Source of the DNA: Deltaproteobacteria bacterium
Lineage (GTDB): Bacteria; Desulfobacterota; Desulfomonilia; UBA1062
Direction: 5' to 3'
NCBI GenBank assembly: GCA_018433775.1
Contig: JAHDQN010000040.1
Coordinates: 20,587-84,586 of the forward strand
DNA: 64,000 bases
The notes under the pieces are model-generated. The model did not search any database, was not told the origin of the DNA, and saw only the letters and a list, made by a program, of their open reading frames with translations. Below are positions 1-48,222 of the stretch, piece by piece; the stretch's first letter is position 1, and each line of letters begins with the position of its first letter. A program made the position numbers and the translations under genes.

Positions 1-440
1 GAAGTTGAATCCAAATGCTCATTGATGCAATCCCATGTAGATTGGCTAAATAAAGGATCTCTTTCAGTAAGGATCAAAAAACCTTGGCCATACTTAATAT
101 GCCATTCCTCATATGAAACCTTGGATATTTTTTTGTGTAGAGTGGTTATAAATGCAATAGCAGTTCTCTCATCTGGACTGAAAATTGGGTGTTCTTTTCT
201 TATATATGGCTTTTCGCCAGGAGTGACAAAGGACCGCTCTTCCTGGGCTTCTTCATAACTTCTATAAATGTCAGCATGTTCAATCCAAATAAGTTTATCA
301 CCATCTTTTGCTATTGCATCAGGGGGATCAGGTTTTTCGATGACAATAAAATTAGTTGTATTCTTTGAATTATACCAGGCAAGGAAGCTATTAATAACCG
401 CATCCTCGTGAGCTCGCTGTATTTGTTCTCTTGGCTTCAT
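1..440 (-). CDS. Hypothetical cassette protein, 5'-complete, 3' end beyond window
   Basis: I translated the minus strand from the ATG at 438-440 to position 1 and found no stop (146+ codons: MKPREQIQRAHEDAVINSFLAWYNSKNTTNFIVIEKPDPPDAIAKDGDKLIWIEHADIY...). It is absent from the ORF track because it is open-ended. It begins 8 nt after attC 448-507. I recognise no domain. Confidence 0.5.
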   Translation of the reverse strand, partial: MKPREQIQRAHEDAVINSFLAWYNSKNTTNFIVIEKPDPPDAIAKDGDKLIWIEHADIYRSYEEAQEERSFVTPGEKPYIRKEHPIFSPDERTAIAFITTLHKKISKVSYEEWHIKYGQGFLILTERDPLFSQSTWDCINEHLDST

Positions 441-447
441 CTTTTAT

Positions 448-507
448 TCCCAACGTGGGCATCAGCGGCGCGGCTCCGCCGCGTCCGCCTGGATGCCTTG
501 GTTGGAT
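448..507 (-). repeat. attC recombination site (cassette boundary)
   Basis: The plus strand reads TCCCAAC...GTTGGAT. The inner stem is AGCGGCGCGGC / GCCGCG(T)CCGC, flanked by GGCATC / GATGCC. The unpaired bases (T, C, G) are all on the 3' arm of the plus strand, as in an attC bottom strand. Confidence 0.7.
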
Positions 508-1208
508 GATCTCTTGCATGTTTGAGGGACAGGCAGAATAAATCCTAATAATGAACTCATAATCAAAACTGCTATCCAAAAGTATATTGACAGGTAGAAA
601 GACCTCATCCCCCATTTGCTTAACTCTCTAGATTTCAATAGAGCTTCTCTTTGTTCTAGTTCTTTGTTTGTGGGTATGTATAATTCAATATTACCACTCT
701 CTGTAATGTAATTTGATTGAACACCATCTTCATAGAACAAAATTCCCGCATAAAATTTGCTTATTTTTGATTTTGTATTAATTGAGTCATTTGTAGAATT
801 AATGCGTGATACGATGATATCACGAATTGTATCTGGAGTCCTGTGAGGCGCTATTTTTTTGAATGTTTGGTATCCAACGACACTCATAAATAAACAAGAT
901 ACGATTATAAAAACACCTACAGCTGAATATATAAGTCCCTTTAAGGTGTAGCCGCTCTTTCGAATATCTCGGATACCAACAATAATCATTGTTGCTACCG
1001 CTGTTGTTAGTGCAACATCGCGAAATACGCGGATAAGCCATTCAATGAGTGCAACTTCGTGCGAAGCACTAAAAGGATCAAAATCAATAAAAATTAGGTA
1101 GAAAAGGTCAACAAAAATATAAAATGCAAAACCTAAAGGGATGATCCATTCACTGATACTTGATGGCCATCGAAATATTTTACTTATTATTGACATACCT
1201 ATTTTCAT
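462..1208 (-). CDS. Hypothetical multi-pass membrane protein (cassette-encoded)
   Basis: 248-aa ORF. Hydrophobic segments include WIIPLGFAFYIFVDLFYLIFI, TAVATMIIVGI, LIYSAVGVFIIVSCLFMSVVG and a C-terminal FYLSIYFWIAVLIMSSLLGFIL. The ATG directly abuts attC 1207-1263, and the stop codon lies inside attC 448-507. Confidence 0.55.
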   Translation of the reverse strand: MKIGMSIISKIFRWPSSISEWIIPLGFAFYIFVDLFYLIFIDFDPFSASHEVALIEWLIRVFRDVALTTAVATMIIVGIRDIRKSGYTLKGLIYSAVGVFIIVSCLFMSVVGYQTFKKIAPHRTPDTIRDIIVSRINSTNDSINTKSKISKFYAGILFYEDGVQSNYITESGNIELYIPTNKELEQREALLKSRELSKWGMRSFYLSIYFWIAVLIMSSLLGFILPVPQTCKRSSNQGIQADAAEPRR

Positions 1209-1263
1209 CCAACGTACCGATCACCGGCGGCTAAAAGCCGTCCGGTGCATTGGCTGGTTGGGC
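1207..1263 (-). repeat. attC recombination site (cassette boundary)
   Basis: The plus strand reads ATCCAAC-GTACCGAT-CACCGGCGGC-TAAAA-GCCG(T)CCGGTG-CATTGGCTG-GTTGGGC. The 3' arm carries an extra T. The central part is nearly identical to attC 2996-3052. Confidence 0.8.
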
Positions 1264-1326
1264 CTTTCGTGCATATATGCAAGGTAATTAATTATAACAT
1301 GCGGGGTTTTATTGCTGTATATAGCT

Positions 1327-2028
1327 TCATTCCTTTTGACTTCTTCTGCTATCTCTTCTGGCTTTTGCAAGTTTAAGCCTTGCTGGCTCGGTATATATTC
1401 TTTCTAGTAGCATAATAGTGAAATCAAGTAAGTCTTCAGCGTCCTCTCGTTTCAGTGTCCCTGCATGTGCACCATCGTTACCATCTTCACGCACACAAGC
1501 AGATAAATCACGTAAGCTCTCTGGAAGTATGCATTGATCAAACATCCATGGTAATCGCAATCCTAAATCACGACGAATACGTTTATTTAAGCCATTTGCA
1601 TCTTCTTCGGGAAGCATTCCCCTTGTAACAATGTCAATACACAAACGAAACATTGTACCAGCAGCATTATTACATCCAACAGCTAGACATGTTGCACCTT
1701 CACGAAAGACCTTTTCCACATCATCTGGTATGTGTTCCGGAGGCTCTGTTGTGGCAGTATCTTTTAAGCTTATGAATCCCTCAATATCAACATAAGTGTT
1801 CACTGCGCCTTTGAAACTTAATAAACCTTTTTCATGTACAAGCTTATAATTACCGTGAACATTTTCTGACAGAACAAATATTGTTGCCCGATGACAATGG
1901 CGACATTTACAGAAGGATTCATACCATTGCTGCCAGTCATATTTTACATACGTAACATGGGCTGCAATAATGTCGAAGGTAATCTTTTGTGCATGACATC
2001 GTGGACAATTTGCTACTAACTCAGCCAT
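1327..2028 (-). CDS. Zinc-ribbon plus DUF4145-like protein (cassette-encoded)
   Basis: 233 aa. The N-terminus has CPRC...CRHC cysteine pairs. The C-terminal helical region resembles DUF4145 (AVGCNNAAGTMFRLCIDIV, DGNDGAHAG, DAEDLLDFTIMLLERIY). The start lies about 40 nt after the attC core, with an AAAGGAA RBS. Confidence 0.55.
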   Translation of the reverse strand: MAELVANCPRCHAQKITFDIIAAHVTYVKYDWQQWYESFCKCRHCHRATIFVLSENVHGNYKLVHEKGLLSFKGAVNTYVDIEGFISLKDTATTEPPEHIPDDVEKVFREGATCLAVGCNNAAGTMFRLCIDIVTRGMLPEEDANGLNKRIRRDLGLRLPWMFDQCILPESLRDLSACVREDGNDGAHAGTLKREDAEDLLDFTIMLLERIYTEPARLKLAKARRDSRRSQKE

Positions 2029-2070
2029 AAAATATTATTCCTTTCACATAAAAAACATTTGTGACTTGAT

Positions 2071-2127
2071 GCCCAACGTAAGGGTCAGCCGCGCGCGTAG
2101 CGCGTCGGCTGCAACCTATGGTTAGGC
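2071..2127 (-). repeat. attC recombination site (cassette boundary)
   Basis: The plus strand reads GCCCAAC...GTTAGGC, a perfect match to RYYYAAC / GTTRRRY. The stem is CAGCCG-CGCG [CGTAG] CGCG-(T)-CGGCTG, with an extra T on the 3' arm. Confidence 0.8.
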
Positions 2128-2130
2128 GAT

Positions 2131-2985
2131 TTAACTAATTGTTAAATTTACTAATTCCTTAAAATCGCTTTCTCTTATTATGCGAAGATACTGCCCCTTT
2201 TTAATCAGCGATTCTGCTTTTCTGTGTTTGGAGCTTTTGTCATGGCCTGCAAGTTTTTTTACATCTTGATCCCCAACTACCAAAATAGTTGTATCCTTCC
2301 TAACCCCGTTAGCTACTGTGCAACCTATTTTTGAAGCCATATCAGCTGCTTCTCGCCGTGGAATATCAAGAGCACCGGTGAAAACTAAGACCTCACCAAA
2401 GAGATATCCCTCTGGATTACCTTCTCTTGAAATGCTGCTTGAAGGATCGATTGGTTGTTCGACACGTCTTAGCCAACCTTGTAAATCGATGCCCGTCTTA
2501 GCAATTGCAGCTAAAAGAATATGTGCAGCAGCTTTTGCATCTTCAAGGGCGTCATGATGCGCAAATTGGTATCCTAAGTTATTGCATACATTTGCAAGGC
2601 CGTACCCACTCCATGCAAATTGTTCCCATGTCCTGCGTGTTACGCGAGCAGAATCTAGCCAAGTACATGAAGGATTGCGAAGGTCATATTTTAAGCAAGC
2701 TTGTTGAATAGCCACTCGATCGAAATGGGTATGACAAACAACAATTCTACCATCTAAGTAATTGTATAAACGACTTGCAGCATCTGGCAGAGTGGGAGAG
2801 CCTTCTACTGTGGATTCATCGATTCCATGTATAGAAATGTTCATCCAATCGAAAAAATCCTCTGGATCGATATATGTCTTCCACTCTTCTTGCAACAATC
2901 CATTTTTGAAGACTGCAAGTCCTATTTGGCAGATTGAAGACATATCAGCATTAGCAGTTTCAAAGTCCAATGCTATAAAGTCCAT
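2131..2985 (-). CDS. DEDDh (DnaQ/epsilon-like) 3'-5' exonuclease fused to a C-terminal BRCT domain (cassette-encoded)
   Basis: 284 aa. Exo I is ALDFETAN, Exo II is CHTHFDRVAI and Exo III is HHDALEDAKAAA. The BRCT-like tail is GEVLVFTGALDIPRREAADMASKIGCTVANGVRKDTTILVVGD. An AGGAGG RBS sits immediately after the attC core (GTTAGGCAGGAGGCATTATG). Confidence 0.8.
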   Translation of the reverse strand: MDFIALDFETANADMSSICQIGLAVFKNGLLQEEWKTYIDPEDFFDWMNISIHGIDESTVEGSPTLPDAASRLYNYLDGRIVVCHTHFDRVAIQQACLKYDLRNPSCTWLDSARVTRRTWEQFAWSGYGLANVCNNLGYQFAHHDALEDAKAAAHILLAAIAKTGIDLQGWLRRVEQPIDPSSSISREGNPEGYLFGEVLVFTGALDIPRREAADMASKIGCTVANGVRKDTTILVVGDQDVKKLAGHDKSSKHRKAESLIKKGQYLRIIRESDFKELVNLTIS

Positions 2986-2995
2986 AATGCCTCCT

Positions 2996-3052
2996 GCCTA
3001 ACGTGCAGATCACCGGCGGCTGAAAGCCGTCCGGTGCATTTGCGGGTTAGCC
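2996..3052 (-). repeat. attC recombination site (cassette boundary)
   Basis: The plus strand reads GCCTAAC-GTGCAGAT-CACCGGCGGC-TGAAA-GCCG(T)CCGGTG-CATTTGCGG-GTTAGCC. Confidence 0.8.
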
Positions 3053-3079
3053 AGCCTACCCATATAATTTTATCTGGCA

Positions 3080-3880
3080 TTACAGCGGAAGACAATAAAT
3101 TAGATCTGTATAGCATTTTTCAACCACATTTTTTGGAAAAGGTAAATGTTCGTAATCACTTCCAATTATCCCTTTATTCAAATTCATTTGGTTGTCACAA
3201 AGGATAATTATGTATTTACCAAGGGCTTTAGCATACGATGTCTCACTAAGAATCCACGAGGTGTCTCCGGGTGTAAAGATACAGATAAAAATATCTTGTG
3301 AATGTATTTTTTGGGCCACTTTATCTGGTATATTCTTTGTTTCATAACCACTTCCTTCTTTAACGTCGAATCCGAGACGTCTGAGAAAGGTGTTGAGTTT
3401 GCCTGAAACATCATTTCCGTATTCATCAAACCTATGTGCTAAAAAAATAGACTTCTTTAACCCATACTTTGATACTTTGGCTGAAACATCTTCGCCGGGA
3501 TTACTGGCTTGGAAAAATGATTTTACATGATCATGTATTGAGCTAATAATATCTAGATCATCTGATCTTACACATACTTCAAGACCTGACTTGCGAATAT
3601 TAATTATAGTTGAAAACCCAAGAGATGCATTTTTGCCCCAATAGTAATGTACATATATTGGCAAAGCATTGGGATAAGTTTCAAGCAAACGCATGAACTC
3701 CTGAAAATTTTCAGCGTGAAGTCTTCTGAATTCACCAATATGCAGACTTAAAGAATGTGAGTCTGATTTTGGTTCTTGTGGTTTATATTTATTGATCTTC
3801 AAGTATTCATCAAATTGCCTAAAGGATGATAGTATATCTAAATTACTTGGGTATACAGAATACTCTCTATCTTCTTGCAT
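3080..3880 (-). CDS. Protein with unknown N-terminal domain and C-terminal TIR-like (DUF1863/TIR_2-like) domain (first cassette)
   Basis: 266 aa. The C-terminal roughly 120 aa (KKSIFLAHRFDEYGNDVSGKLNTFLRRLGFDV...DIFICIFTPGDTSWILSETSYAKALGKYIIIL) follow the TIR-like pattern: a beta-strand, an acidic loop, then an S-W-x3-E motif. I recognise nothing in the N-terminal 140 aa. Confidence 0.5.
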   Translation of the reverse strand: MQEDREYSVYPSNLDILSSFRQFDEYLKINKYKPQEPKSDSHSLSLHIGEFRRLHAENFQEFMRLLETYPNALPIYVHYYWGKNASLGFSTIINIRKSGLEVCVRSDDLDIISSIHDHVKSFFQASNPGEDVSAKVSKYGLKKSIFLAHRFDEYGNDVSGKLNTFLRRLGFDVKEGSGYETKNIPDKVAQKIHSQDIFICIFTPGDTSWILSETSYAKALGKYIIILCDNQMNLNKGIIGSDYEHLPFPKNVVEKCYTDLIYCLPL

Positions 3881-3896
3881 AAATACTGCCCCCTAT

Positions 3897-3967
3897 GGCT
3901 AACAACTTCCTCTACTGCATAATTGCAGCAAAAGTTGCTATATAGCAACTTTTGCTGCAACATTATG
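3897..3967 (-). repeat. Terminal cassette core site plus atypical 38-bp perfect palindrome (array boundary; truncated attC or attI remnant?)
   Basis: GGCTAAC at 3897-3903 is GTTAGCC on the cassette strand, the same core as at 3046-3052. A perfect palindrome TTGCAGCAAAAGTTGCTATATAGCAACTTTTGCTGCAA spans 3923-3960 and extends 5 bp further after a 2-nt bulge. There is no matching GTTRRRY box on the right side. Confidence 0.45.
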
Positions 3968-4311
3968 AATTACGAATATACCATGCTCCTCTTTTCGGAA
4001 GACCTTTCTCCTGGGGGGAGAGCTCGTGAGGGCCGTGCAGGAATCAGGGCAGACTCCGTCAGTAGAAGGTGAACGTGAAGATAGAAAATGGTCTCCTCTC
4101 ATTCATTTCATGCATCGACAAGGTCCGGCCGCCATTCCTGGCGTCCGGGCAATAACCTGTGAATACGATATCATTTTTTCCGCGACAAATCCAGATGAAA
4201 GTGAAAATGCTCAAGCCGCACGGGACTGCACCGTTCATGGCCCTGCCGCTCTGTACGGGCGGTCGAGCGGGCTGAACAGACCCCGCCGGGGTTTCCGGAG
4301 GCGTTACAGCC

Positions 4312-6271: not shown

Positions 6272-9200
6272 TTATTGCCGTGCATACAGGTCCTGCAGCG
6301 ACGACACGCCGAAGCCGCCCGCCTGCAGGGACCTGACGGCCTCGAGGCTCGCCCGCGAGGCCGCGACGGTCGTGGCGTAGGGGACGCTGTAGCGGATGGC
6401 GCTGCGGCGAATGTGGTGCGCGTCCTGCGAGGGTTTTCTGCCGATGCTCGTGTTGATGATCAACTGGATCTCGCGGTTCTTGATGTGGTCGACCACGTTG
6501 GGCCGGCCCTCGCTCACCTTGAGCACCACCTCGGCGTCAACGCCGCTCGCCTGCAGGTGCCGCGCGGTGCCCCGGGTGGCGACGATGCGGAAGCCGAGCC
6601 CGGCAAAGCCCTTTGCCACTTCCGTGATCCGGGCCTTGTGCATGTCGTGGACGCTGACGAACACGGTCCCGGAGTCCGGAAGGCCCGAGCCGGCCGCGAT
6701 CTGCGACTTGGCGAAGGCGGCCCCGAACGAGAAGTCCACCCCCATAACCTCGCCCGTCGACTTCATCTCCGGGCCAAGCCCCACGTCCGCGTCGGGAAAG
6801 CGCTGGAACGGAAACACGGCCTCTTTCACCGAGACGTGGGCAGGCACGACCTGCTCGGTGAAACCGAGCTCTTCAAGCGTCCGGCCCAGCATGACCTTGG
6901 TGGCGATCCGGGCCAGGGGCCTGCCGATTGCCTTGCTCACGAAGGGCACGGTCCTCGACGCCCGGGGGTTCACCTCCAGCACGTACACCTCGCCGTCCTT
7001 GACGGCGTACTGGATGTTCATGAGCCCGACCACCCCGATCTCTTTGGCGATCAGCCGGGTCTGCTCCCTGATCGTCTCCCGTATCTTCTCCGGCAGGGTC
7101 GCGGGCGGCAGCACGCACGCGCTGTCTCCGGAGTGGATGCCCGCCTCCTCGATGTGCTCCATGATCCCGCCGATCACCGTGGTTTGGCCGTCGCAGACCG
7201 CGTCCACGTCGACCTCGACCGCGTCCTCCAGAAAGCGGTCGATGAGCACGGCGTTGCCCGGAAAGAGCTTGAACACGCCGGTGATGAAGGTCTTCAGGGC
7301 TTGAGCGTCGTAGATGATCTCCATGGAGCGGCCGCCCAGCACATACGAAGGCCTGACCAGCACCGGGAAGCCGATCCCATCGGCCGCGGCGAGGGCCTCG
7401 TCAACGGTGAAGGCGATGTCGCTCTGCGGCTGCCTGAGATCGAGCTTCTTCACGATCTCGTTGAACCGCTCCCGGTCCTCGGCCCGGTCGATGGCGTCGG
7501 GCTGGGTGCCCAGGATGGTCACGCCCTCGTTCCACAGGTCCCGGGCGAGGTTGAGCGGGGTCTGGCCCCCGAACTGCACGATCACGCCCTCCGGGCTCTC
7601 GGCCCTGATCACGTGCAGCACGTCCTCCAGGGTGAGCGGCTCGAAGTAGAGCTTGTCCGAGATGTCGTAGTCCGTGCTCACGGTCTCGGGGTTGGAGTTG
7701 ATCATGATGCTCTCATAGCCCATCTCGCGCAGCGCGAACGAGGCGTGCACGCAGCAGTAGTCGAATTCGATCCCCTGGCCGATCCGGTTGGGCCCGCCGC
7801 CGATGATCACCACCTTGGGCCGCCCGGACGGCCTTGTCTCGGTCTCGGTCTCGTAGGTGGAGTAGTAGTAGGGCGTATAGGCCTCGAATTCGGCGGCGCA
7901 GGTGTCCACGAGCTTGTACACCGGCACGATTCCCTCGCGGAAACGCAGCCCCCGCACCCCGTCTTCGCCCATGCCCCAGGCCTCGGCCAGGAAGCGGTCG
8001 GAAAAGCCCATCCGCTTGGCCTCTTCCAGCAGCTCTTTTGAGGGCTTGCTGTTTTTGAGCGTGCCCTCGAACTCCACCAGCTCGCCTATGTGATAAAGAA
8101 ACCAGGGGTCGATCCCGGTCATGGCGTGTATCTCGTCCATGCCCATCCCGCTCCTGAGCGCCTCTGCCAGCCAGAACAGCCGGGCCGAGTTGGGATAGGT
8201 GAGCCGCGAGACGATCTCCTTGCGGTCTGCGGCGGCGCCTGCCTCGACCGGGCTGTTCAGGCCGTACCTGCCGGTCTCGAGCGAGCGGAGTGCCTTGCCG
8301 AGCGCCTCCTTGAAGGTGCGGCCGATGGCCATGGTCTCGCCCACGGACTTCATCGAGGTGGTGAGCAGGTCAGGGGTCTCCGGAAACTTCTCGAAGGTCC
8401 AGCGGGGGATCTTGACCACGCAGTAGTCGATGGCCGGCTCGAACGAGGCACAGGTCTCGCGGGTGATGTCGTTGGGGATCTCGTCCAGGGTGTAGCCCAC
8501 GGCCAGCTTGGCAGCGATCTTGGCGATGGGGAAGCCCGTTGCCTTTGACGCCAGGGCCGACGAGCGCGACACCCGGGGGTTCATCTCGATCACCACGATG
8601 TCCCCGTTCTTCGGGTTGACCGCGAACTGGACGTTGGAGCCGCCCGTCTCAACGCCGATCTCGCGCATGACCGCGACCGCGGCGTTGCGCAGATCCTGGT
8701 ACTCCACGTCGGTCAGGGTCTGGGCCGGGGCCACGGTGATGGAGTCGCCCGTGTGCACGCCCATGGGGTCGAGGTTTTCGATGGAGCAGATGATCACCAC
8801 GTTGTCCGCCCGGTCGCGCATGACCTCGAGCTCGTACTCCTTCCATCCGATCACCGACTCCTCGAGCATGATCTCGGTGATCATGCTCGCGTCGAGCCCG
8901 GCCTTTGCCATGACCTCGAGTTCTTCGGGGTTGTAGGCGATCCCGCCGCCGATCCCGCCCAGGGTGAACGAGGGCCGGACGATGACGGGGAAGCCGATCC
9001 GGCGGGCGATGGCAAACACCTCGTCCATGTTCCGGGCAAACCCGCTCTCCGGGACGCGCAGGCCGATGTTTTCCATGGCATGCCTGAACTTCTCGCGGTC
9101 CTCGGCCTTGTGTATGACCTCGGGTGTGGCACCGATCATCTCTACGCCGTACCTGTCGAGCACCCCCATCTCGTGGACCTTTACCGACACGTTCAGGCCG

Positions 9201-40073: not shown

Positions 40074-40766
40074 GAGCAACCTTCCTTTCCCGATAAAAGG
40101 CTTTTATGTCATATTGTATGTTTATATTATTCATTCATTCTTCCTGGGTATATCGGCGACACAGTGCTGTAAATTTAATCGCATACCTGCCGGCATTGCA
40201 AAGGTTTACGACCGGTAACTTTTAGGGAGTAAGAAAAGAAGGAACCCTGCCCTGGAAGACAGGAAAAGAAACCGGATGTTCGGAAAAGCCGACTCCTTAA
40301 AAACCACCAAACCGAAAGATTCACAAGAATGAACACCATCCGCCCTCAACGGGAAATCAGTGCACGGGGAGGTTCGTGTATGTATGATTTCTTATAGAGA
40401 TATGAATTCTGTATCTCGCGATCTCAGGTTGAGATAGCCAGTTGATATATGCAATGTAGGCTAAGCCTTGTTATCCTCACACGATATATGAACTCTTCAA
40501 AAGACCTGTTTAATGGGAAAGGCTCTCTGCGGTGCCAGGAGAAATGATTGGGACTAATAGTGTAGTTGTAAAATCACCGACGATCCAAGTTTACCTATCC
40601 TCTGTTCGAGCTATACTGATCATTCACTTTTTTTAGGCAAGGGGCGTAATAATTATATTGATGATGGCTACCGATACTATCGGCAGATGACGCTTCGGCG
40701 TGTCACGATTCATTCCAGGCGTTAATTGCCTGGGTAAAGGCAACGTCCAGAGGAGGAGTAGCGATC

Positions 40767-42077
40767 ATGAGGCACCTTCGTATATCCATCATGGGTCTTG
40801 CAGTGTGCGTAGCGGTCATGTTCACGTGCGGATGCAGCGCGGTGCGGTATACCACCACCATGAAGCCTTCCTGCGACAAGGACCTGCAGTACGGCCCGGT
40901 CCGCCTCAACGTGTCGAGCTTCACCTACGAGATGCCTGGTGTTCAGCCCCAGCCGCCGGACATCGACCGGAAGGCGAAAGAGCTCTTCCCGAGCGTGTTC
41001 ACGGACGACCTCGCAGGACTGCCTGTCCACATCGACATCAAGAAAACGTACGACGACACGTCCATGGGCGTCACGAGGCTCCTCTCGCTTACCTTCACGC
41101 TTGGGGTGATCCTGATACCGGGCACCCAGGAGTACGGGTTCATTGTCCGTACGAGCGTGCTGGACTCCCTGGGCGAGCCCCTGGTCGAGAAAGAGGGGAA
41201 GTTCGGAATCGACACGGTGTCATGGGGCAGCTACTGGCCCTGGGGCCTCCTGCCGGTGATCGGGCCCTCCGACCTTCCGAGGGCATCCCTTTTCAGCGGG
41301 AGCAACTTCGCGTCCGGCACGATAGAGTCTCAGACCAAGATCAACGACCACGCCGCCGCGTGCATCGCCGAGATCGCGGCCCGGTCGCTCCAGTCGGCAG
41401 ATCAGGCCAGGCTCGAAGCAGCCTACCGTGAACGGCAGTCCCGCGTGCAGGAGGTCACCATCGACGGCCGGAAGTGCACAAGTTTCCTCACCATGAACCC
41501 GGTGTCCAGGCCGAAGGTTGGCAGCGTCTTCAAGGCGCTCGTGTACGATGGCGAACCGAAGCAGTGGACAAAACCGCTGCATACCGCGGTCGTGGCCCGA
41601 TACGACGAGTCCGGCCGCTGGCGGCCCGTGAAAACCTACCTGCGCCATGCCCGCACGCTCACCTCGGTGAGCGCCCTGATCGAGAACAATATCCCGGTCA
41701 AAGTGGCGGTGCGCACGCCCGAAGCGCCTCCCCTGGAGGACTTCATCGACACCCCGGACCTCTCGGGTGCCGACCGTGCCGAGGTCTTGCGCTGGAGCAA
41801 CTCCATGCTGCTCGATGCCAAGAACCGGTCCCTGGAGAGGCTGCTGCAAGAGGAGAGCAGGGAAACGCTGCTCGCGCTCGCGACCCGTATCGAGCGCTCC
41901 ATCCTGGACCTGAACGAGCAGGCGGAGCGAGCCAAGGACAAGGCCCAGGCCATGGTGGAAAAGGGAGAGGGCGACCCTGCCCCCGAGAGAGAGCTGTCGG
42001 TCCTGTGCCGCCAGCGCATCGAGGTGCTCAAGCCCGTGCTCGCAGCCGTCAAGGTTGCTGCAGCGGGAAAGCAGTAA
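40767..42077 (+). CDS. Putative lipoprotein of unknown function (paralog A)
   Basis: 436 aa. The signal peptide with cysteines is MGLAVCVAVMFTCGCS, behind an AGAGGAGGAG RBS. It is homologous over its full length to 42177-43511. The conserved C-terminal block is PPLEDFIDxPDLSGxDRAxxLRWSN...RELSVLCRQRIE. Confidence 0.7.
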   Translation: MRHLRISIMGLAVCVAVMFTCGCSAVRYTTTMKPSCDKDLQYGPVRLNVSSFTYEMPGVQPQPPDIDRKAKELFPSVFTDDLAGLPVHIDIKKTYDDTSMGVTRLLSLTFTLGVILIPGTQEYGFIVRTSVLDSLGEPLVEKEGKFGIDTVSWGSYWPWGLLPVIGPSDLPRASLFSGSNFASGTIESQTKINDHAAACIAEIAARSLQSADQARLEAAYRERQSRVQEVTIDGRKCTSFLTMNPVSRPKVGSVFKALVYDGEPKQWTKPLHTAVVARYDESGRWRPVKTYLRHARTLTSVSALIENNIPVKVAVRTPEAPPLEDFIDTPDLSGADRAEVLRWSNSMLLDAKNRSLERLLQEESRETLLALATRIERSILDLNEQAERAKDKAQAMVEKGEGDPAPERELSVLCRQRIEVLKPVLAAVKVAAAGKQ

Positions 42078-42176
42078 CAGAGGATCAGGGGGAGCCGGCG
42101 CTTGGGCGCACCAGGCTCAGGTATCAAAAAAGGGATGCCGACATGAACAGTATTCAATGAACAGGGAGGAGCGGCA

Positions 42177-43511
42177 ATGAGAGCATACCGGGCGATGTTG
42201 ATATCGGGCACGATGATCCTGCTGGCCATGCTTCTGACCGGCTGCGCATCGATGCGCATAGCGAGCGCCCTGAAACCCTCGGGCGAAACGGGCCTCGCCC
42301 TCGGCAAGGCGCGCTTCAGCCTCATCGATTACACCGGCACGTACGACAAGGACAATCCGGCCGCGAAGTCCTGGATGGACACGATCACCCGCGATTTCCT
42401 GGCACAGCGGGCCAAAGCCCTTTATCCGGAGATCTTTACGGACGAATGGACGGCGTTGCCGGTCATGGTCAAGGCCGAAAGCACGCTCCACCACAACACA
42501 ATGATACCCGCATTCCTGACAATCCTGACCGCAGGTGTAGTCCCCGTTCCCCAGAAGGCGTCCTTGAACCTGACCGTGTCCTCGGATGCGCGGGACGCGC
42601 TGGGCGAAAGCCTGATCGCCAGGGACAGGAAATTCGAGGTCGAGCAGGTCGCGTGGGTGAGCCTCGTCGGTCCGCTGGGCTGCTTCCCGGTCCCAGGACA
42701 GGCCGACCTGGAGCGGGACAGCGTCTTTCTCTTCATCCCGCTGAGCAAGGATGCCTATTCCAGGACCAAGCTCCCGACGTATGTCGCGGACTGCATCGTC
42801 GAATCCGTGGTCAGGGACCTCCGCGAGGCGGACCCCGGCCTCGTCGACTCCGCCTACAAGGCCCGCGCATCGCGCCTCCAGGAGGTCGCCGTCGACGGCC
42901 GCGCCTTCTGGGTCTTCCTCGCGCCGTCGCTCTCGCAGGAAACCGGGAAACCGGTCGCCTTCACGGCCTTGTTCTACGGTGAGCAGCCGAGGCGCGGGAT
43001 GGTGCCCTATGAACAGGTTGTCGTGGCACGCCGCGACGGCAGCGGCACCTGGGTCCCGGAGACCGGATACCTGCGCCGGGCGAAGAGCCTGACCGCCGTC
43101 GGCGTCCTCATGGACAAGGGCATCCCGGCGAAGGTTGCGGTGCGGGTTGTTAACGAGCCTCCCCTGGAGGACTTCATCGATCTCCCTGACCTCTCCGGCC
43201 CGGATCGAGCCGACAGATTGCGCTGGAGCAACGGCGTTCTGCTCGAAGCCAAGAACAGGTCGCTCACGAAGACGCTGAAGGAAAAAACCGGCGACGAGCT
43301 GCTGACCCTGGTGACCCGCATCGAGAAGGCAATCCTCGATCTGAGCGGTCTGGCCGAACGCGCCAAGGACAACGCCCAGTCGATCGTGGAAAAGGGCCAG
43401 GGCGACCCGGGACCGGACCGTGAGCTCTCCGTCCTGTGCCGCCAGCGGATCGAGATCTTCAAGCCCATCCTGGCCGCAGCCAAGCAGGAAGCGGTGCTTA
43501 CAAGACCATAG
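42177..43511 (+). CDS. Putative lipoprotein of unknown function (paralog B)
   Basis: 444 aa. It has a classical lipobox (LLAMLLTGCAS) and a GGGAGGAG RBS. It is a paralog of 40767-42077, and the two genes share an identical 23-mer, cctcccctggaggacttcatcga. Confidence 0.72.
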   Translation: MRAYRAMLISGTMILLAMLLTGCASMRIASALKPSGETGLALGKARFSLIDYTGTYDKDNPAAKSWMDTITRDFLAQRAKALYPEIFTDEWTALPVMVKAESTLHHNTMIPAFLTILTAGVVPVPQKASLNLTVSSDARDALGESLIARDRKFEVEQVAWVSLVGPLGCFPVPGQADLERDSVFLFIPLSKDAYSRTKLPTYVADCIVESVVRDLREADPGLVDSAYKARASRLQEVAVDGRAFWVFLAPSLSQETGKPVAFTALFYGEQPRRGMVPYEQVVVARRDGSGTWVPETGYLRRAKSLTAVGVLMDKGIPAKVAVRVVNEPPLEDFIDLPDLSGPDRADRLRWSNGVLLEAKNRSLTKTLKEKTGDELLTLVTRIEKAILDLSGLAERAKDNAQSIVEKGQGDPGPDRELSVLCRQRIEIFKPILAAAKQEAVLTRP

Positions 43512-43632: not shown

Positions 43633-46422
43633 TCACAGCGCCCCGGCAATGCGCTTAAGGGCCGCCGGGACATCCTCGTCCAGGATGTGGAGGCGCAGCA
43701 CCCTCCTTCCCTTTTCCTTCAGCGCGTTCCAGTCGCCCAGGGCCTGGGCGCTCTCCAATGTTCCGAACGAGATGGACGATTGCCATGACCCGGGCTCGTC
43801 AGGAATCGCGAGATCATCCGAAACCTGCCGGGTGATCTGGACGAAGAGCCCCCTGCCCTCGTCGCCCTTGTGGAGCTGGCCCGTGGAGTGGAGGTAACGG
43901 GGCCCGTACCCGCTCATGACCGCGATCCTGCGGGTGTCCCTGATCTTCGTGCGGAACCCGTCGAGGGCTTCGCCGATCTCATCCGTTGGCGGCAGATACG
44001 CCTGTATCGCTACGTATGAGGCATCGCCAGCATCTTTCAGAAATGATGCCAGGGCATCGGGCAGGGTTCCTGCCCGCACGTCGCCGTACACGCTGATGTG
44101 CTGGTCCTTCAGCGCCGGGGCGTGCCCGGGGAGCGAACCGGTCTTCCGGAACAGCTCCACCGCCTCTGTCGCTCGTTTCTTCGCGGCCTCCACGTCGGGC
44201 TGATCAAAGGGGTTGACGCCGAGAATGTGCCCTGCCACGGCAGTGGCTGTCTCCCAGAGGTAGAACTGCCCGCCGATATCGCACAGATCGTGGAGCCCGA
44301 TGCGCACCACGGGGTGCCCGGCCTTTTCGAGCCCGTCCAGGATCTTGTCGTGGGTGTGATCGCCTTCAAGCCGCAGGCTCACGAAGAGCCGGTCGTCCCG
44401 GTACTGCCCGGGCGATCCCGGGCGTTCGCGCACGATGGGGACGATGCCCTTGCCCTGCTTGCCCGTGCTCTCGGCAATGAGCTGCTCCACCCAGTCTCCG
44501 AACGAGGCGATCCCGGGCGACAGGAAAAAGGTCGCCTTGTTCCTGCCCGCCAGGGCCGCCTCACCGAGGATCGCGCCGAGGACGCCCCCGGAGTTTGCGC
44601 CCTTCGGGGTGCAGGTTCCGGCCTGGCAGTTCTCGGTCATGACCAGGGCCCTGTCCAGGAGCGACTTGACGTCCACTCCCATGAGCGCCGCAGGCACGAG
44701 CCCGAAATGGGAGAGGGCCGAGTATCTGCCGCCCAGATCGGGTTCGTTGAGGAAGATGTTCCTGAAATTGTACTTCCGGGCCGTTTCCATCAGGGGGGAG
44801 CCCGGATCCGTGATCGCGACGAAGTGCTCCCCGGCATTGTCCGCGCCCAGGGCGTCGGCGGTCACGGTGAAGAAGTATCTGAACAGCGAGAGCGTCTCCA
44901 CCGTGGTGCCCGATTTGGTCGATACGATGAACAGGGTCGTGGCCGGGTCGACCTTCTGGAATTCGGCGGCAAGAAAGTCGGGGTCGGTGCTGTCGATGAC
45001 GTTAAGGTCGAGATATCCCTCGCGCACGCCGAAGATCGACCGCATCACGTCGGGGGCCAGCGATGACCCGCCCATGCCCAGAAGGATCGCGCGGGTGTAT
45101 CCCTTCGATGCCATGTCCCGCGCGAACTGCTCCATCCCGTCCGCGTGATCGAGAATGTCTGCTGGCAGGGAGAGCCAGGCCAGCCGGTTGGTGATTTCCC
45201 CGGGGCTCTCGCTCCACACCGTGTGGTCGTGCGCGTAGATCCGGGACATGACCCCGGCCTTGTCCATCTCCTGAAGGCGGGTATCCACCCTGGCCTGAAG
45301 GTCTCCCAGGGCGGCTGTCATCTGATGCCACCCGGAGATGATGGCCCGCCTCTTGGCCGCGATGCTGTCCATGAGCGAACGGAACGACCCCGCGAACAGA
45401 TCAACGCCGTCTTTCTGCAGCTTGGAGGTCACGGCTTCGAGGTCGATGCCCGCCTGTGCGAGCCGCTCGATCTGCGCGAGGGCCTCCTCAATTCCCGTGC
45501 CCAGCGTGCTCTCCGTCTTTCCGTGGTCGAGAAAGGCCTGGAGCGTGGCTGGTGGAAGGGTGTTGACCGTGTGGGGGCCGATGAGCTCGTCCACGTAGAG
45601 CGTGTCCGGATATTTCGGGTTCTTGGTCCCGGTGCTCGCCCACAGCAGCCTCTGGGGACGCGCTCCCTGCTGCTCGAGCGCCTGCCACCGATCACCGGAG
45701 AAGATCCCGCCGAAAAGCCCGTAGGCAACCTTGGCGTTGGCCACCGCGATCTTCCCCGTGAGGTCGCTCAGGGAATGTCTTTCGAGCTCGGGATCGAGCG
45801 AGGTGTCAACCCTGCTCACGAAAAACGAGGCCACCGAGGCCACGCGGGCGAGGTCACCGCCCGAGGCAAGATATTTTTCCAGGCCGCGCAGGTAGGCGTG
45901 AGCCACCTCCTCGTAGCGCCCCACGGAAAAGAGCAGGGTCACGTTGACGTTGATGCCTTCGGCGATCAGGGTTTCGATCGCAGGCACCCCTTCTGCGGTG
46001 GCAGGGACCTTGATCATGATATTCGGACGCCCCAGGGCCGCAAAGAGCCGCCTGGCTTCGTGGACGGTCTGTTCGGTGTCGTAGGCCAGCACCGGGCTCA
46101 CCTCGATGCTCACATACCCGTCCAGACCCTTTGTGTCGTCATAGACCTTCCGGAACAGGTCCGCTGTCCGGGCGATGTCGTCGAGCGCGAGGTGCTCGTA
46201 GATCTCCTCGATCGACAGGCCGTCCCGCACCAGGGCCGTGAGATAGTCATCGTAATCCGAGCTGCCCGCTATGGCCTTTTCGAAGATCGTGGGGTTTGAC
46301 GTGACTCCGCGGATGCCCTGATCGATGAGTGACTGAAGCTCGCCCGAGGTGATCAGCGACCTGCGGATGTAGTCGAACCATATCGCCTGCCCTATGTGGG
46401 CCAATGTATGGAGTTTCGCCAT
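43633..46422 (-). CDS. Bifunctional transaldolase / glucose-6-phosphate isomerase
   Basis: 929 aa. The N-terminal transaldolase shows IWFDYIRRSL...GVTSNPTIFEKAI. The C-terminal PGI shows ILLGMGGSSLAPDV and STKSGTTVET. Confidence 0.88.
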   Translation of the reverse strand: MAKLHTLAHIGQAIWFDYIRRSLITSGELQSLIDQGIRGVTSNPTIFEKAIAGSSDYDDYLTALVRDGLSIEEIYEHLALDDIARTADLFRKVYDDTKGLDGYVSIEVSPVLAYDTEQTVHEARRLFAALGRPNIMIKVPATAEGVPAIETLIAEGINVNVTLLFSVGRYEEVAHAYLRGLEKYLASGGDLARVASVASFFVSRVDTSLDPELERHSLSDLTGKIAVANAKVAYGLFGGIFSGDRWQALEQQGARPQRLLWASTGTKNPKYPDTLYVDELIGPHTVNTLPPATLQAFLDHGKTESTLGTGIEEALAQIERLAQAGIDLEAVTSKLQKDGVDLFAGSFRSLMDSIAAKRRAIISGWHQMTAALGDLQARVDTRLQEMDKAGVMSRIYAHDHTVWSESPGEITNRLAWLSLPADILDHADGMEQFARDMASKGYTRAILLGMGGSSLAPDVMRSIFGVREGYLDLNVIDSTDPDFLAAEFQKVDPATTLFIVSTKSGTTVETLSLFRYFFTVTADALGADNAGEHFVAITDPGSPLMETARKYNFRNIFLNEPDLGGRYSALSHFGLVPAALMGVDVKSLLDRALVMTENCQAGTCTPKGANSGGVLGAILGEAALAGRNKATFFLSPGIASFGDWVEQLIAESTGKQGKGIVPIVRERPGSPGQYRDDRLFVSLRLEGDHTHDKILDGLEKAGHPVVRIGLHDLCDIGGQFYLWETATAVAGHILGVNPFDQPDVEAAKKRATEAVELFRKTGSLPGHAPALKDQHISVYGDVRAGTLPDALASFLKDAGDASYVAIQAYLPPTDEIGEALDGFRTKIRDTRRIAVMSGYGPRYLHSTGQLHKGDEGRGLFVQITRQVSDDLAIPDEPGSWQSSISFGTLESAQALGDWNALKEKGRRVLRLHILDEDVPAALKRIAGAL

Positions 46423-46571: not shown

Positions 46572-47576
46572 TCAAGGCAGGGTGTCCATGATATCCAGCC
46601 CGAAATGGGCTGCCCCTATGAGACCGGCCTTGGGATTGAGAATGACATGGACCGGAAAGGCGGAGATGACTCCCGCGAGCCTGCCCTTGCGGCGATATGC
46701 CTCCATGAACGGGCTCTGCCCGATGATGGACACGAGTCTGGGAGGTATGCCTCCCCCCACGTACACCCCACCGGAGGCGAGGATCTTGAGCGCCAGGTTG
46801 CCGGTCTCCGCCCCGAGAATGGAGAGGAAGACGCGCACCGTCTCCTGACAGATTTCGCAGGTCGTATCCCGATCCAGGGCTGCGTTCACGATGACGGCGG
46901 TGGCATCGGGCTCCCGGACCAGGCTTTCCGCGAGCCAGGCAGGCTCTTCATGCCTGCCCTGGTCCTTCAGGAACGAGTAGATGTTGGGAATGCCGCTGCC
47001 CGAGCATATCCGCTCGTAGCTGACATGCTCGAAGCGGTCCATGAGGTATTTCAGCAGCTCGAGCTCGATGGCGTCCGCGGGGCCGAACTCGGTGTGCCCG
47101 CCCTCGGATGCGTGGGCGAGATAGCGGTCGCCGTCCCAGGTGAGGTATGCCTCGCCCAGGCCGGTCCCGGCCGCGATGACCGCGCGCGGACCCGTGGGGA
47201 TCGGCCTGCCCGCGTTCAGGGTGAGCAGGTCCTCGCCCCTGAGCAGGGGAATGCTGTAGGCAACAGCCTGGAGATCGTTGATCAGGCGCACCCTGTCTAT
47301 ATTCAGCTCGGTCTGGAGATACCCGGCATCGATCTCCCACGGCAGGTTCGTGATCTGAGCGCGTTTTCCCACCACGGGGCCCGCCACGCCGAAGACCGCG
47401 TGATCGACCCCCGTGATATGATGCCGGGTCGAGAACTCCTTGATTATGGCCCTCAGCGAGCTATAAGACCCGCTGGGATAAATGCCCTCGTACAGGGGCC
47501 TTTCGGGACCGCTCTGCGGGGTGTACAGAGCGAGTATGGTCTTGGTCCCTCCGATATCACCTGCAATCAATTTCAT
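46572..47576 (-). CDS. glk: Glucokinase
   Basis: 334 aa: MKLIAGDIGGTKTILALY... and GGVYVGGGIPPR, typical of the Glk family. Confidence 0.85.
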   Translation of the reverse strand: MKLIAGDIGGTKTILALYTPQSGPERPLYEGIYPSGSYSSLRAIIKEFSTRHHITGVDHAVFGVAGPVVGKRAQITNLPWEIDAGYLQTELNIDRVRLINDLQAVAYSIPLLRGEDLLTLNAGRPIPTGPRAVIAAGTGLGEAYLTWDGDRYLAHASEGGHTEFGPADAIELELLKYLMDRFEHVSYERICSGSGIPNIYSFLKDQGRHEEPAWLAESLVREPDATAVIVNAALDRDTTCEICQETVRVFLSILGAETGNLALKILASGGVYVGGGIPPRLVSIIGQSPFMEAYRRKGRLAGVISAFPVHVILNPKAGLIGAAHFGLDIMDTLP

Positions 47577-47796: not shown

Positions 47797-48222
47797 TCAC
47801 CCCGGAAAACTCAGCCTGACAAGCTTCTGCGTCTCGAAAATATTTTTCACCTTGTTGACGTAATCTCTTTCCCTGATGGGCTTGCGGATGTATGCGTCCG
47901 CGAGCCTCCCCTCGAAGAGTTCCTCGATGTCTCTGATTTTTGCGCTTCCCGAGCAGATGAGCACCTTGATGTGAGGATATTTGAATTTGACATAGTGGAT
48001 GAACACGATTCCGTCCATGCCGGGGCGGCTGATGTTGGTGGAGATGATATCGATGTCGCCGTGCCTCTCTTCGATCAACTGCAGGGCCGTGTCACTGGAG
48101 GGGGCGGTGAGGATGTCCAGATCATACTCCTCGAAGTTGTTTTCGATGACCGCCCTGATGAATGACCTGACCACCCGTTTGTCATCCACGACCAGGACGA
48201 TCTTTTTTCTCTTCACGCTCAT
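47797..48222 (-). CDS. Stand-alone CheY-like receiver domain protein with Asn at the phospho-acceptor position
   Basis: 141 aa. It has KIVLVVDD (acidic pair), IDIISTNISRPGMDG (canonical DxxxPxMDG with D replaced by N), LICSGS and YIRKP. Confidence 0.8.
   Translation of the reverse strand: MSVKRKKIVLVVDDKRVVRSFIRAVIENNFEEYDLDILTAPSSDTALQLIEERHGDIDIISTNISRPGMDGIVFIHYVKFKYPHIKVLICSGSAKIRDIEELFEGRLADAYIRKPIRERDYVNKVKNIFETQKLVRLSFPG

Follow-up and report, generated by a model that had tools for sequence, protein, structure and literature searches.

The window analysed here, a 64-kb stretch of DNA, contains two adjacent genes encoding large, exported and mutually similar proteins, and the question raised by this locus is to which family these proteins belong and what such a pair might do in the cell envelope. 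An initial annotation had described them as a homologous tandem pair of lipoproteins with a more conserved C-terminal module, and had recognised no described family.

Features and ancestry of the gene pair

Gene 1 (positions 40767..42077, + strand) encodes a protein of 436 aa and gene 2 (42177..43511, + strand) a protein of 444 aa, the latter being identical to the database protein P0001. Both ORFs were found exactly where they had been annotated. The two proteins were 42% identical over their full length (BLASTP, E = 2e-113), which is far beyond chance and confirms that they are full-length paralogues. Identity was 32% in the N-terminal domain, 42% in the middle domain and 65% in the C-terminal segment of about 118 aa; the motif string quoted for this segment was present in the BLASTP alignment, and its stronger conservation was therefore also confirmed.

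Both N-termini exhibited a positively charged start and a hydrophobic core, followed by a cysteine. The signal peptide of gene 1 (40767..40835, + strand) ends in a degenerate lipobox (FTCG-C23, or TCGC, as opposed to LSGC in its orthologues), whose C23 aligns with the conserved lipobox cysteine of the family. In gene 2 (42177..42245, + strand), sequence and lipobox statistics indicated a canonical lipobox (LTG-C23, i.e., LTGC), with an alanine at position +2. The lipobox cysteine was nearly invariant in an alignment of 49 sequences and was present in 68 of the 69 full-length homologues (consensus LSGC), the lone exception being truncated at its N-terminus. Both proteins are thus predicted lipoproteins, as initially annotated, with a signal peptide and a lipobox containing an invariant cysteine.

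A strong Shine-Dalgarno sequence lies ahead of both genes, GAGGAGGAG at 40750-40758 for gene 1 and GGGAGGAG at 42164-42171 for gene 2, the latter located in the 99-bp spacer between the genes (42078..42176, + strand). No terminator-like site was detected in this spacer, and the two genes are therefore probably co-transcribed. Upstream of gene 1, an AT-rich intergenic region of 687 bp (40080..40766; 41-46% GC according to the composition profile) separates the pair from a divergently transcribed MCP gene (HAMP + MCPsignal). This region probably holds a promoter; a single sigma-70-like site was observed at 40590-40617, a frequency no higher than expected by chance. Rfam, repeat, small-ORF, plasmid and terminator searches of the region returned nothing meaningful. 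The neighbours of the pair in the window, the MCP gene and tal-pgi, place it in a context of chromosomal housekeeping genes.

Gene 1 (family profile E = 3e-188) was 81-82% identical to the first array gene of loci L008 and L001, and gene 2 was 81% identical to the second gene of L008. Genes 1 and 2 fall in separate old paralogue clades (g1-type and g2-type, respectively), which are stable, have positional orthologues in other species and show a conserved gene order; they are therefore ancient paralogues. We rejected both gene conversion and a local duplication of recent date, because dS between the two C-terminal modules reached 0.77 and the clades are separate and old, so that the annotated tandem duplication does not hold if it was meant as a recent event. 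The dN/dS of the pair versus orthologues ranged from 0.21 to 0.42, and that of genomes that keep the partner genes described below, compared with each other, from 0.25 to 0.29. The pair is intact and, as judged from these substitution rates (dN/dS 0.2-0.4), under purifying selection.

Domain architecture and fold

Scans of both proteins against Pfam, NCBIfam and PADLOC gave no match above threshold. When the 49 members of the alignment were all scanned permissively against Pfam, no match exceeded the threshold and no weak match recurred, and a profile search of PDB sequences yielded nothing beyond noise. These searches agree with the initial view that no described family accounts for the pair. 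The homologues formed clusters with 450 representatives at 50% identity.

To describe the fold, we used an AF2 model of the gene 2 protein, which was confident overall (pLDDT 87.7) and was characterized, from the N- to the C-terminus, by an alpha/beta domain, a beta domain and a three-helix bundle. The alpha/beta domain (residues 24-232; 42246..42872, + strand) exhibited an LptE/CsgG/PqiC/TraT/HpaA-like fold. Its neighbours in the fold search were outer-membrane lipoproteins (CsgG, TraT, HpaA, LptE and PqiC-like), with HpaA and TraT among the best; PelC was absent from the best structural matches listed. PelC has been placed within the LptE/CsgG/PqiC alpha/beta core fold group (PMC13631591).

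A hydrophobic insert was found in the N-terminal domain of both proteins: TRLLSLTFTLGVILIPG in gene 1 (41073..41123, + strand) and HNTMIPAFLTILTAGVVPV in gene 2 (42492..42548, + strand; residues 106-124, between two core strands), each with a Kyte-Doolittle mean of about 2.0 (15-residue window for gene 1). This candidate membrane-embedded segment, the only hydrophobic insert in the model, appeared as one short helix and was the least confident part of the N-terminal domain (pLDDT 66 at residues 111-120). Its hydrophobicity was retained throughout the family and in the larger set of N-module proteins. The middle domain of gene 2 (residues 233-326; 42873..43154, + strand) is beta-rich according to the AF2 secondary structure and basic (pI ~10).

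Both proteins end in a three-helix module that matches the family profile. In gene 2, the linker EPPLEDFIDLPDLSG and the module (43155..43508, + strand) comprise helices at residues 344-369, 372-406 and 412-441, modelled with pLDDT >90. The corresponding segment of gene 1 (residues 319-436; 41721..42074, + strand), which begins with the linker PPLEDFID, is 65% identical to that of gene 2 and homologous to the bundle modelled there. The bundle appeared well folded, with many invariant polar residues, and most invariant or near-invariant positions of the 49-sequence alignment clustered in it. In the gene 2 module, taken as residues 327-444, an invariant surface comprises R349, W350, N352, K359, N360 and R422-R424.

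The pair shares with CsgG, the curli secretion channel, an alpha/beta (ABD-like) core in a lipoprotein. CsgG, however, has two amphipathic transmembrane beta-hairpins, which build a 36-strand barrel in a nonamer, whereas the proteins described here have one short hydrophobic helix and two additional domains. The CsgG model of Pfam (PF03783) matched neither the window proteins nor the 49 aligned members at E ≤ 1, and no csgE-, csgF-, csgA- or csgB-like neighbours were found; the neighbouring genes encode a TPR protein and a protein without annotation, and those in the window are the MCP gene and tal-pgi. TraT, a decameric surface-exclusion lipoprotein of conjugation, is a single-domain protein of about 225 aa, often plasmid-borne in tra operons; it differs from the present proteins, which have 436 and 444 aa, three domains, a chromosomal context and no sequence similarity to it (no Pfam or NCBIfam match), and it lacks a TPR or third-protein partner. 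Likeness to LptE, PqiC (DUF330) and PelC is at the level of the fold only, with no sequence match and a different domain architecture, and their cognate partners LptD, the MCE protein PqiB and PelB were absent from all gene tables of the family loci.

The C-terminal module and its partner genes

Among the 17 assessable distinct loci, 12 showed one to four tandem lipoprotein copies, followed by genes for a periplasmic TPR protein of about 520 aa and a secreted third protein of about 370 aa. This partnership tracked the C-terminal module. Indeed, the module recurred (E from 1e-24 to 1e-30) on unrelated PEGA, DUF2846, PDZ and short lipoprotein fronts, beside homologues of the TPR and third proteins, and the middle and C-terminal parts travelled together in relatives bearing other N-termini. 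A caspase-fused N-module protein was not located beside such homologues. The C-terminal module is therefore a separable unit, carried by lipoproteins with quite different N-terminal parts. The diversification on a common scaffold that had been suggested initially is supported in this sharper form, of varied N-termini beside one TPR and one third protein; nothing pointed to sensing, one of the functions offered with it.

The TPR partner was recognised only by generic TPR models of Pfam and NCBIfam (about 25 matches, all below cutoff) and so has no recognisable porin domain. Searches of Pfam, NCBIfam, PADLOC and PDB gave no match for the third partner, and its AF2 model was poor (pLDDT 44, pTM 0.20). 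The gene tables of the clusters contained no conserved outer-membrane beta-barrel, ATPase or peptidase, and no glycosyltransferase or synthase was found near the system. An anti-phage defence role, raised by the caspase-fused relatives, was rejected for the family, given that every component is exported and that PADLOC gave no matches.

Literature searches yielded no description of a system combining C-module lipoproteins, a TPR protein and this third protein, and the gene pair belongs to a previously undescribed cell-envelope gene system. This system was found mainly in anaerobic Deltaproteobacteria-type lineages, and the whole cluster is present in the cultured Desulfuromonas sp. AOP6, at AP022810.1 326600-347916. 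The system resembles Pel exopolysaccharide export in Pseudomonas aeruginosa, where PelC works with the large TPR-containing PelB of the same operon: in both cases, a lipoprotein with an alpha/beta core, located in the outer membrane for PelC and probably so here, is encoded together with a TPR partner. However, the TPRs of PelB are joined to a beta-barrel porin encoded in a polysaccharide synthesis operon, whereas the TPR protein here has no such domain, and PelC lacks the extra beta domain and three-helix module of the lipoproteins described here.

A candidate docking role and its alternatives

We give about even weight to the reading that the paralogues are non-redundant, outer-membrane-anchored subunits of an undescribed envelope lipoprotein system, which use the helical module to dock to a TPR scaffold. 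Each protein would be exported and carry a lipid anchor at Cys23, most probably on the periplasmic side of the outer membrane. The N-terminal domain belongs by fold with LptE, CsgG, PqiC, PelC, TraT and HpaA, outer-membrane lipoproteins most of which form rings, and the present proteins may likewise oligomerise; the conserved hydrophobic insert of this domain might dip into the membrane. The basic beta domain comes next and then the highly conserved three-helix module of about 100 residues, which could attach differing lipoprotein heads to one shared scaffold in the periplasm, composed of the dedicated TPR protein and the secreted, putatively helical third protein. The window pair would have been split from its partner genes by a rearrangement, but it is still maintained by selection. 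More tentatively, the module may be a dedicated periplasmic counterpart of dockerin, recruiting interchangeable heads (CsgG-like, PEGA, DUF2846, PDZ) onto a TPR superhelix and the third protein; the result would be a modular complex, associated with the outer membrane and hitherto unrecognised, of Desulfobacterota and other anaerobes. The analogy with cohesin and dockerin of cellulosomes is functional only, namely a small conserved module on many unrelated proteins and a repeat-rich scaffold; the two are related neither in sequence nor in fold, and the present module, a three-helix bundle with putative binding, occurs on periplasmic or outer-membrane lipoproteins, with a TPR protein as scaffold.

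If docking is correct, the common helical module, the dedicated TPR protein and the third secreted protein would be the signature of a new envelope system, conserved and built from several proteins, in anaerobes that have received little study (such as Syntrophaceae-like, Desulfobacterales and Desulfuromonadales lineages), and the docking hypothesis is directly testable in Desulfuromonas sp. AOP6. The three domains could become family models, providing annotation for several hundred clusters now termed "hypothetical", and would extend the LptE/CsgG/PqiC/PelC/TraT class to multi-domain and caspase-carrying forms.

That one module recurs behind a variety of unrelated N-terminal parts, with the two partner genes adjacent in every case, would also be expected of a sorting or export tag, with the TPR/third-protein machinery delivering diverse lipoproteins to the cell surface or to a particular envelope site, a logic similar to that of T9SS C-terminal domains and Slam-dependent surface lipoproteins. 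One TPR partner did show a weak, sub-threshold TPR_Slam match (E = 5e-4), but this was one of the generic TPR matches mentioned above; with no conserved beta-barrel, ATPase or peptidase in the cluster, and with a well-folded module rich in invariant polar residues, we regard a tag as rather unlikely. The same doubt applies to surface-exposed adhesins or protective/exclusion factors (HpaA/TraT-like) diversified by phage, predators or partner cells. The high structural rank of HpaA and TraT, the divergent N-domains and an evolution relatively fast for bacterial genes (dN/dS 0.2-0.5) are consistent with exposure; however, dN/dS was near or above 1 in no domain, the old and ordered clades show no rapid turnover, the conserved partners are of periplasmic type, and TraT and HpaA each consist of one domain, with neither the beta domain nor the helical module.

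Coupling of the proteins, as envelope sensors or ligand binders, to the adjacent MCP would fit the divergent MCP gene 687 bp upstream. It was rejected, and we consider it very improbable, because the two are not neighbours elsewhere: in every other locus examined, the surroundings of the family were free of MCP, tal-pgi and hisF homologues. Moreover, the upstream flank is non-syntenic even with the closest relative, L008, the 687-bp region marking the breakpoint, and no sensor-type domain was detected. Homology to L008 spans only 40746-43492, so that synteny breaks at both ends of the pair, downstream at 19 nt short of the gene 2 stop codon, at the very point where the TPR gene follows in L008. 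As neither a TPR nor a third-protein gene was found in the 64-kb window (tblastn and hmmsearch), the pair could be a functionless remnant left after a rearrangement removed these genes. This appears improbable, since both ORFs are intact with strong RBSs, dN/dS versus orthologues is similar to that of partner-keeping genomes, and every nearly invariant C-module residue visible in the alignment is kept; the partners could also lie elsewhere in the genome, as the window covers 64 kb of a 117-kb contig. A protein 84% identical to the third protein of L008 (P0225) was observed in samples other than the Logan sample of the window.

Tandem lipoprotein genes without an assigned family

Two ORFs of 436 and 444 aa, each with a strong Shine-Dalgarno sequence upstream, were found on the plus strand exactly where the initial annotation had placed them, at 40767-42077 (gene 1) and 42177-43511 (gene 2). 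They are separated by a 99-bp spacer, in which a terminator scan detected no terminator-like site. The two products were homologous from end to end (BLASTP, 42% identity, E = 2e-113), and identity rose from 32% in the N-terminal domain through 42% in the middle one to 65% over the last ~118 residues. The C-terminal module is indeed better conserved between the paralogues than the rest, as had been proposed, and the motif string quoted for it was recovered in the same alignment.

A signal peptide followed by a lipobox was present at both N-termini, as previously read from the sequence: LTG-C in gene 2, and a degenerate TCG-C in gene 1, which is LSG-C in the gene 1 orthologues. The lipobox cysteine was nearly invariant in a 49-sequence family alignment and was kept in 68 of 69 full-length homologues, the sole exception being truncated at its N-terminus. 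At lipobox position +2, 50 of the 55 scored members had G, A, S or T, and none had Asp.

The view that the proteins match no described family held in searches of Pfam, NCBIfam, PADLOC and PDB sequences. Neither protein gave a Pfam or NCBIfam match above threshold, a permissive scan of all 49 aligned members revealed no recurring weak Pfam match, PADLOC was negative, and a profile search against all PDB sequences returned noise only. All 76 homologous clusters, which came from Deltaproteobacteria-type sources (Syntrophaceae, Desulfobacteraceae, Desulfuromonas sp. AOP6, and Desulfuromonadales), lacked a Pfam domain and, where the source gave any name, were called "hypothetical". Scanning one genome per species yielded 20 loci, mostly in Deltaproteobacteria-type MAGs, the other hosts being Desulfomonilia, one Lentisphaerota MAG, and one Thermodesulfovibrionales MAG. 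No description of the system was found in the searchable literature. Uncharacterised envelope clusters are commonplace.

Predicted structure and separate modules

The AlphaFold2 model of gene 2, built with the family alignment, was confident (mean pLDDT 87.7, pTM 0.77) and comprised three parts: an alpha/beta domain with a long beta-hairpin (~residues 24-232); a beta-rich, basic middle domain (residues 233-326, pI ~10); and a three-helix bundle (helices 344-369, 372-406, and 412-441), preceded by the conserved linker EPPLEDFIDxPDLSG. Linker and bundle hold most of the invariant or near-invariant residues of the 49-sequence alignment (R349, W350, N352, K359, N360, E383, G409-D410-P411, R415-E416-L417, and R422-Q423-R424). 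An insert of ~17-20 residues between two core strands (TMIPAFLTILTAGVVPVP in gene 2; family consensus AxLTGFTLGxIPFPG) is the only strongly hydrophobic stretch besides the signal peptide, with which its hydropathy is on a par. This hydrophobicity is kept across the family and in more distant proteins carrying the N-terminal domain (N-module). The insert was also the lowest-confidence portion of the N-domain model (pLDDT 66); a useful parallel is TraT, whose membrane-inserting hydrophobic helices are poorly modelled by AlphaFold (PMC11733297).

Foldseek ranked HpaA, TraT, pre-pore CsgG, and LptE highest (E = 5e-4 to 1e-2), which points, with moderate strength and at the level of fold, to a resemblance to this already known fold class; no sequence-level membership in HpaA-, TraT-, CsgG-, LptE-, PqiC-, or PelC-type families was detected. 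PqiC-, LptE-, PelC-, and CsgG-like proteins are outer-membrane lipoproteins sharing one alpha/beta core, most of which form homo-oligomeric rings; the structural homologues listed in that work also include one flagellar protein from Vibrio and one protein from Helicobacter (PMC13631591).

When 1.84 billion representatives were searched exhaustively with a profile, 450 proteins matched at E <= 0.001, and among these the modules were seen separately. Some lipoproteins of 230-270 aa carry the N-module by itself; in other proteins it is fused to catalytically intact caspase (Peptidase_C14) domains, as in L030 (4849-6465; GCA_030145195.1, JAQYVY010000048.1) and several other representatives (P0159, P0153, P0152, P0176, and P0190). 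N-module proteins keep the lipobox cysteine, a YPxxF motif, W160, and a TPLGLIPVPGxSD loop throughout. The middle and C-terminal parts co-occur behind other N-termini, and the C-module alone ends 245-350-aa proteins with PEGA, DUF2846, or unannotated fronts. Next to the L030 gene are a RhuM-family gene and one for a phage-type integrase, a setting suggestive of a mobile island.

Partner genes of the C-terminal half

Elsewhere, one to four tandem family copies are followed by, or convergent with, genes encoding a TPR protein (~520 aa) and an unannotated third protein (~350-380 aa), both with a signal peptide. Both partners proved homologous when a Syntrophaceae MAG (L001) was compared with Desulfuromonas sp. 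AOP6, with 40% identity for the TPR proteins (E = 2e-94) and 36% for the third proteins (E = 2e-46). The conserved, ~370-aa third protein (L001 15670-16821; L008 10956-12107) has a type-I signal peptide, a moderately hydrophobic and potentially transmembrane helix (~residues 84-103), and a long charged helix. Its AlphaFold pLDDT was only 44 despite a 31-sequence alignment, which suggests that it may fold only inside a complex. Directly upstream of the four-copy array of L001, two small ORFs (8119-8424) encode a Cys-rich 39-aa product with a hydrophobic N-terminus and a 60-aa product; tblastn revealed no counterparts in the window.

Among distinct loci with enough flanking sequence, the partners were present in 12 and absent from 5 (the window, L016, L023, L024, and the distant L027). 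The partnership tracks the C-terminal half, not the N-domain. The caspase-fused protein of L030 stands alone, without partners. The L033 lipoprotein, which has just the middle and C modules in common with the family, adjoins homologues of the TPR protein (E = 8e-106, profile positions 49-524) and of the third protein (E = 2e-16). In L034-L037, which carry the most distant third-protein homologues, a TPR homologue (E = 1e-86 to 1e-91) and the third protein precede three tandem proteins, one of them a PDZ+TPR protein; all three combine an unrelated front with a C-module at the end (E = 1e-24 to 1e-27). Because partner genes accompany the C-terminal half behind unrelated fronts, the helical module singled out in the initial annotation is the signature of a wider system. 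The three-domain architecture, the C-module, and the three-component cluster lie outside Pfam, NCBIfam, PADLOC, and PDB coverage; the known kind to which the system compares is an outer-membrane lipoprotein with a TPR partner.

The window copy and possible function

In L008, the closest relative within the species collection, the gene order is 436-446-TPR-383, and the window's pair shares 81% identity with the two lipoproteins there. Nucleotide homology (85.6%) is confined to window positions 40746-43492: it sets in 21 nt upstream of the start codon of gene 1 and breaks off 19 nt short of the stop codon of gene 2, and the flanks on both sides are unrelated. The upstream breakpoint coincides with a 687-bp, AT-rich (41-46% GC) non-coding spacer (40080-40766) separating gene 1 from a divergent MCP gene; this spacer matched neither Rfam nor plasmid sequences and contained no repeat and no convincing small ORF. 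No TPR or third-protein homologue was found in the whole 64-kb window, part of a 117-kb contig; the one candidate third-protein sequence of fitting divergence came from different samples. A neighbour-joining tree set genes 1 and 2 apart, each in an old clade of its own together with its positional orthologues from L001, L008, and L009; the duplication therefore long predates these species, with gene order conserved, which suggests non-redundant subunits rather than a recent amplification.

We give roughly even chances to a reading in which, in outline, both proteins are lipoprotein subunits anchored in the outer membrane and use their C-terminal three-helix module to dock onto a scaffold in the periplasm, made up of the dedicated TPR and third proteins; we are less sure of the details. 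The N-domain would belong to the ring-forming LptE/CsgG/PqiC/PelC/TraT structural class, its hydrophobic segment may insert into the membrane, and any physiological role is likewise putative. PelC with the TPR-bearing PelB is the closest functional analogy, and dockerin-cohesin a looser one, with variable modules recruited to one scaffold. The modular pattern, with its presumed docking, is clear and unusual, and is directly testable in a cultured organism.

The C-module might instead be a sorting tag, which we consider unlikely; we rate just as low a role as surface-exposed adhesin or exclusion proteins. That the partner-less pair is a stranded, functionless remnant seems less probable still: both ORFs are intact, without visible decay, and their dN/dS against orthologues (0.21-0.42) compares with 0.25-0.29 between two partner-keeping genomes. 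Copies without partners are not unique to the window: a deep-branching clade of the family (L016_g2, L023_g1, and L024_g1; L016 7941-9281 and 10560-11945, L023 454-1758, L024 1118-2464) likewise has no TPR or third-protein genes nearby. Sensing coupled to the neighbouring MCP is very improbable; no MCP, tal-pgi, or hisF homologue was found nearby in any other locus.

Downstream, the pair is flanked by a convergent gene for a 929-aa transaldolase-phosphoglucose isomerase fusion (43633-46422), followed by genes for a glucokinase (46572-47576) and a stand-alone response-regulator receiver (47797-48222), all on the minus strand, which together form a compact sugar-phosphate group. Finally, GC content was sharply lower at window positions 1-4000 (39% versus about 60% elsewhere in the window). 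Four ORFs (248, 233, 284, and 266 aa) lie on the minus strand of this segment: one has a DUF4145 domain, one encodes an RNase_T/DEDDh-type exonuclease, and two are without a Pfam match. The segment looks like a horizontally acquired, possibly defence-related island.
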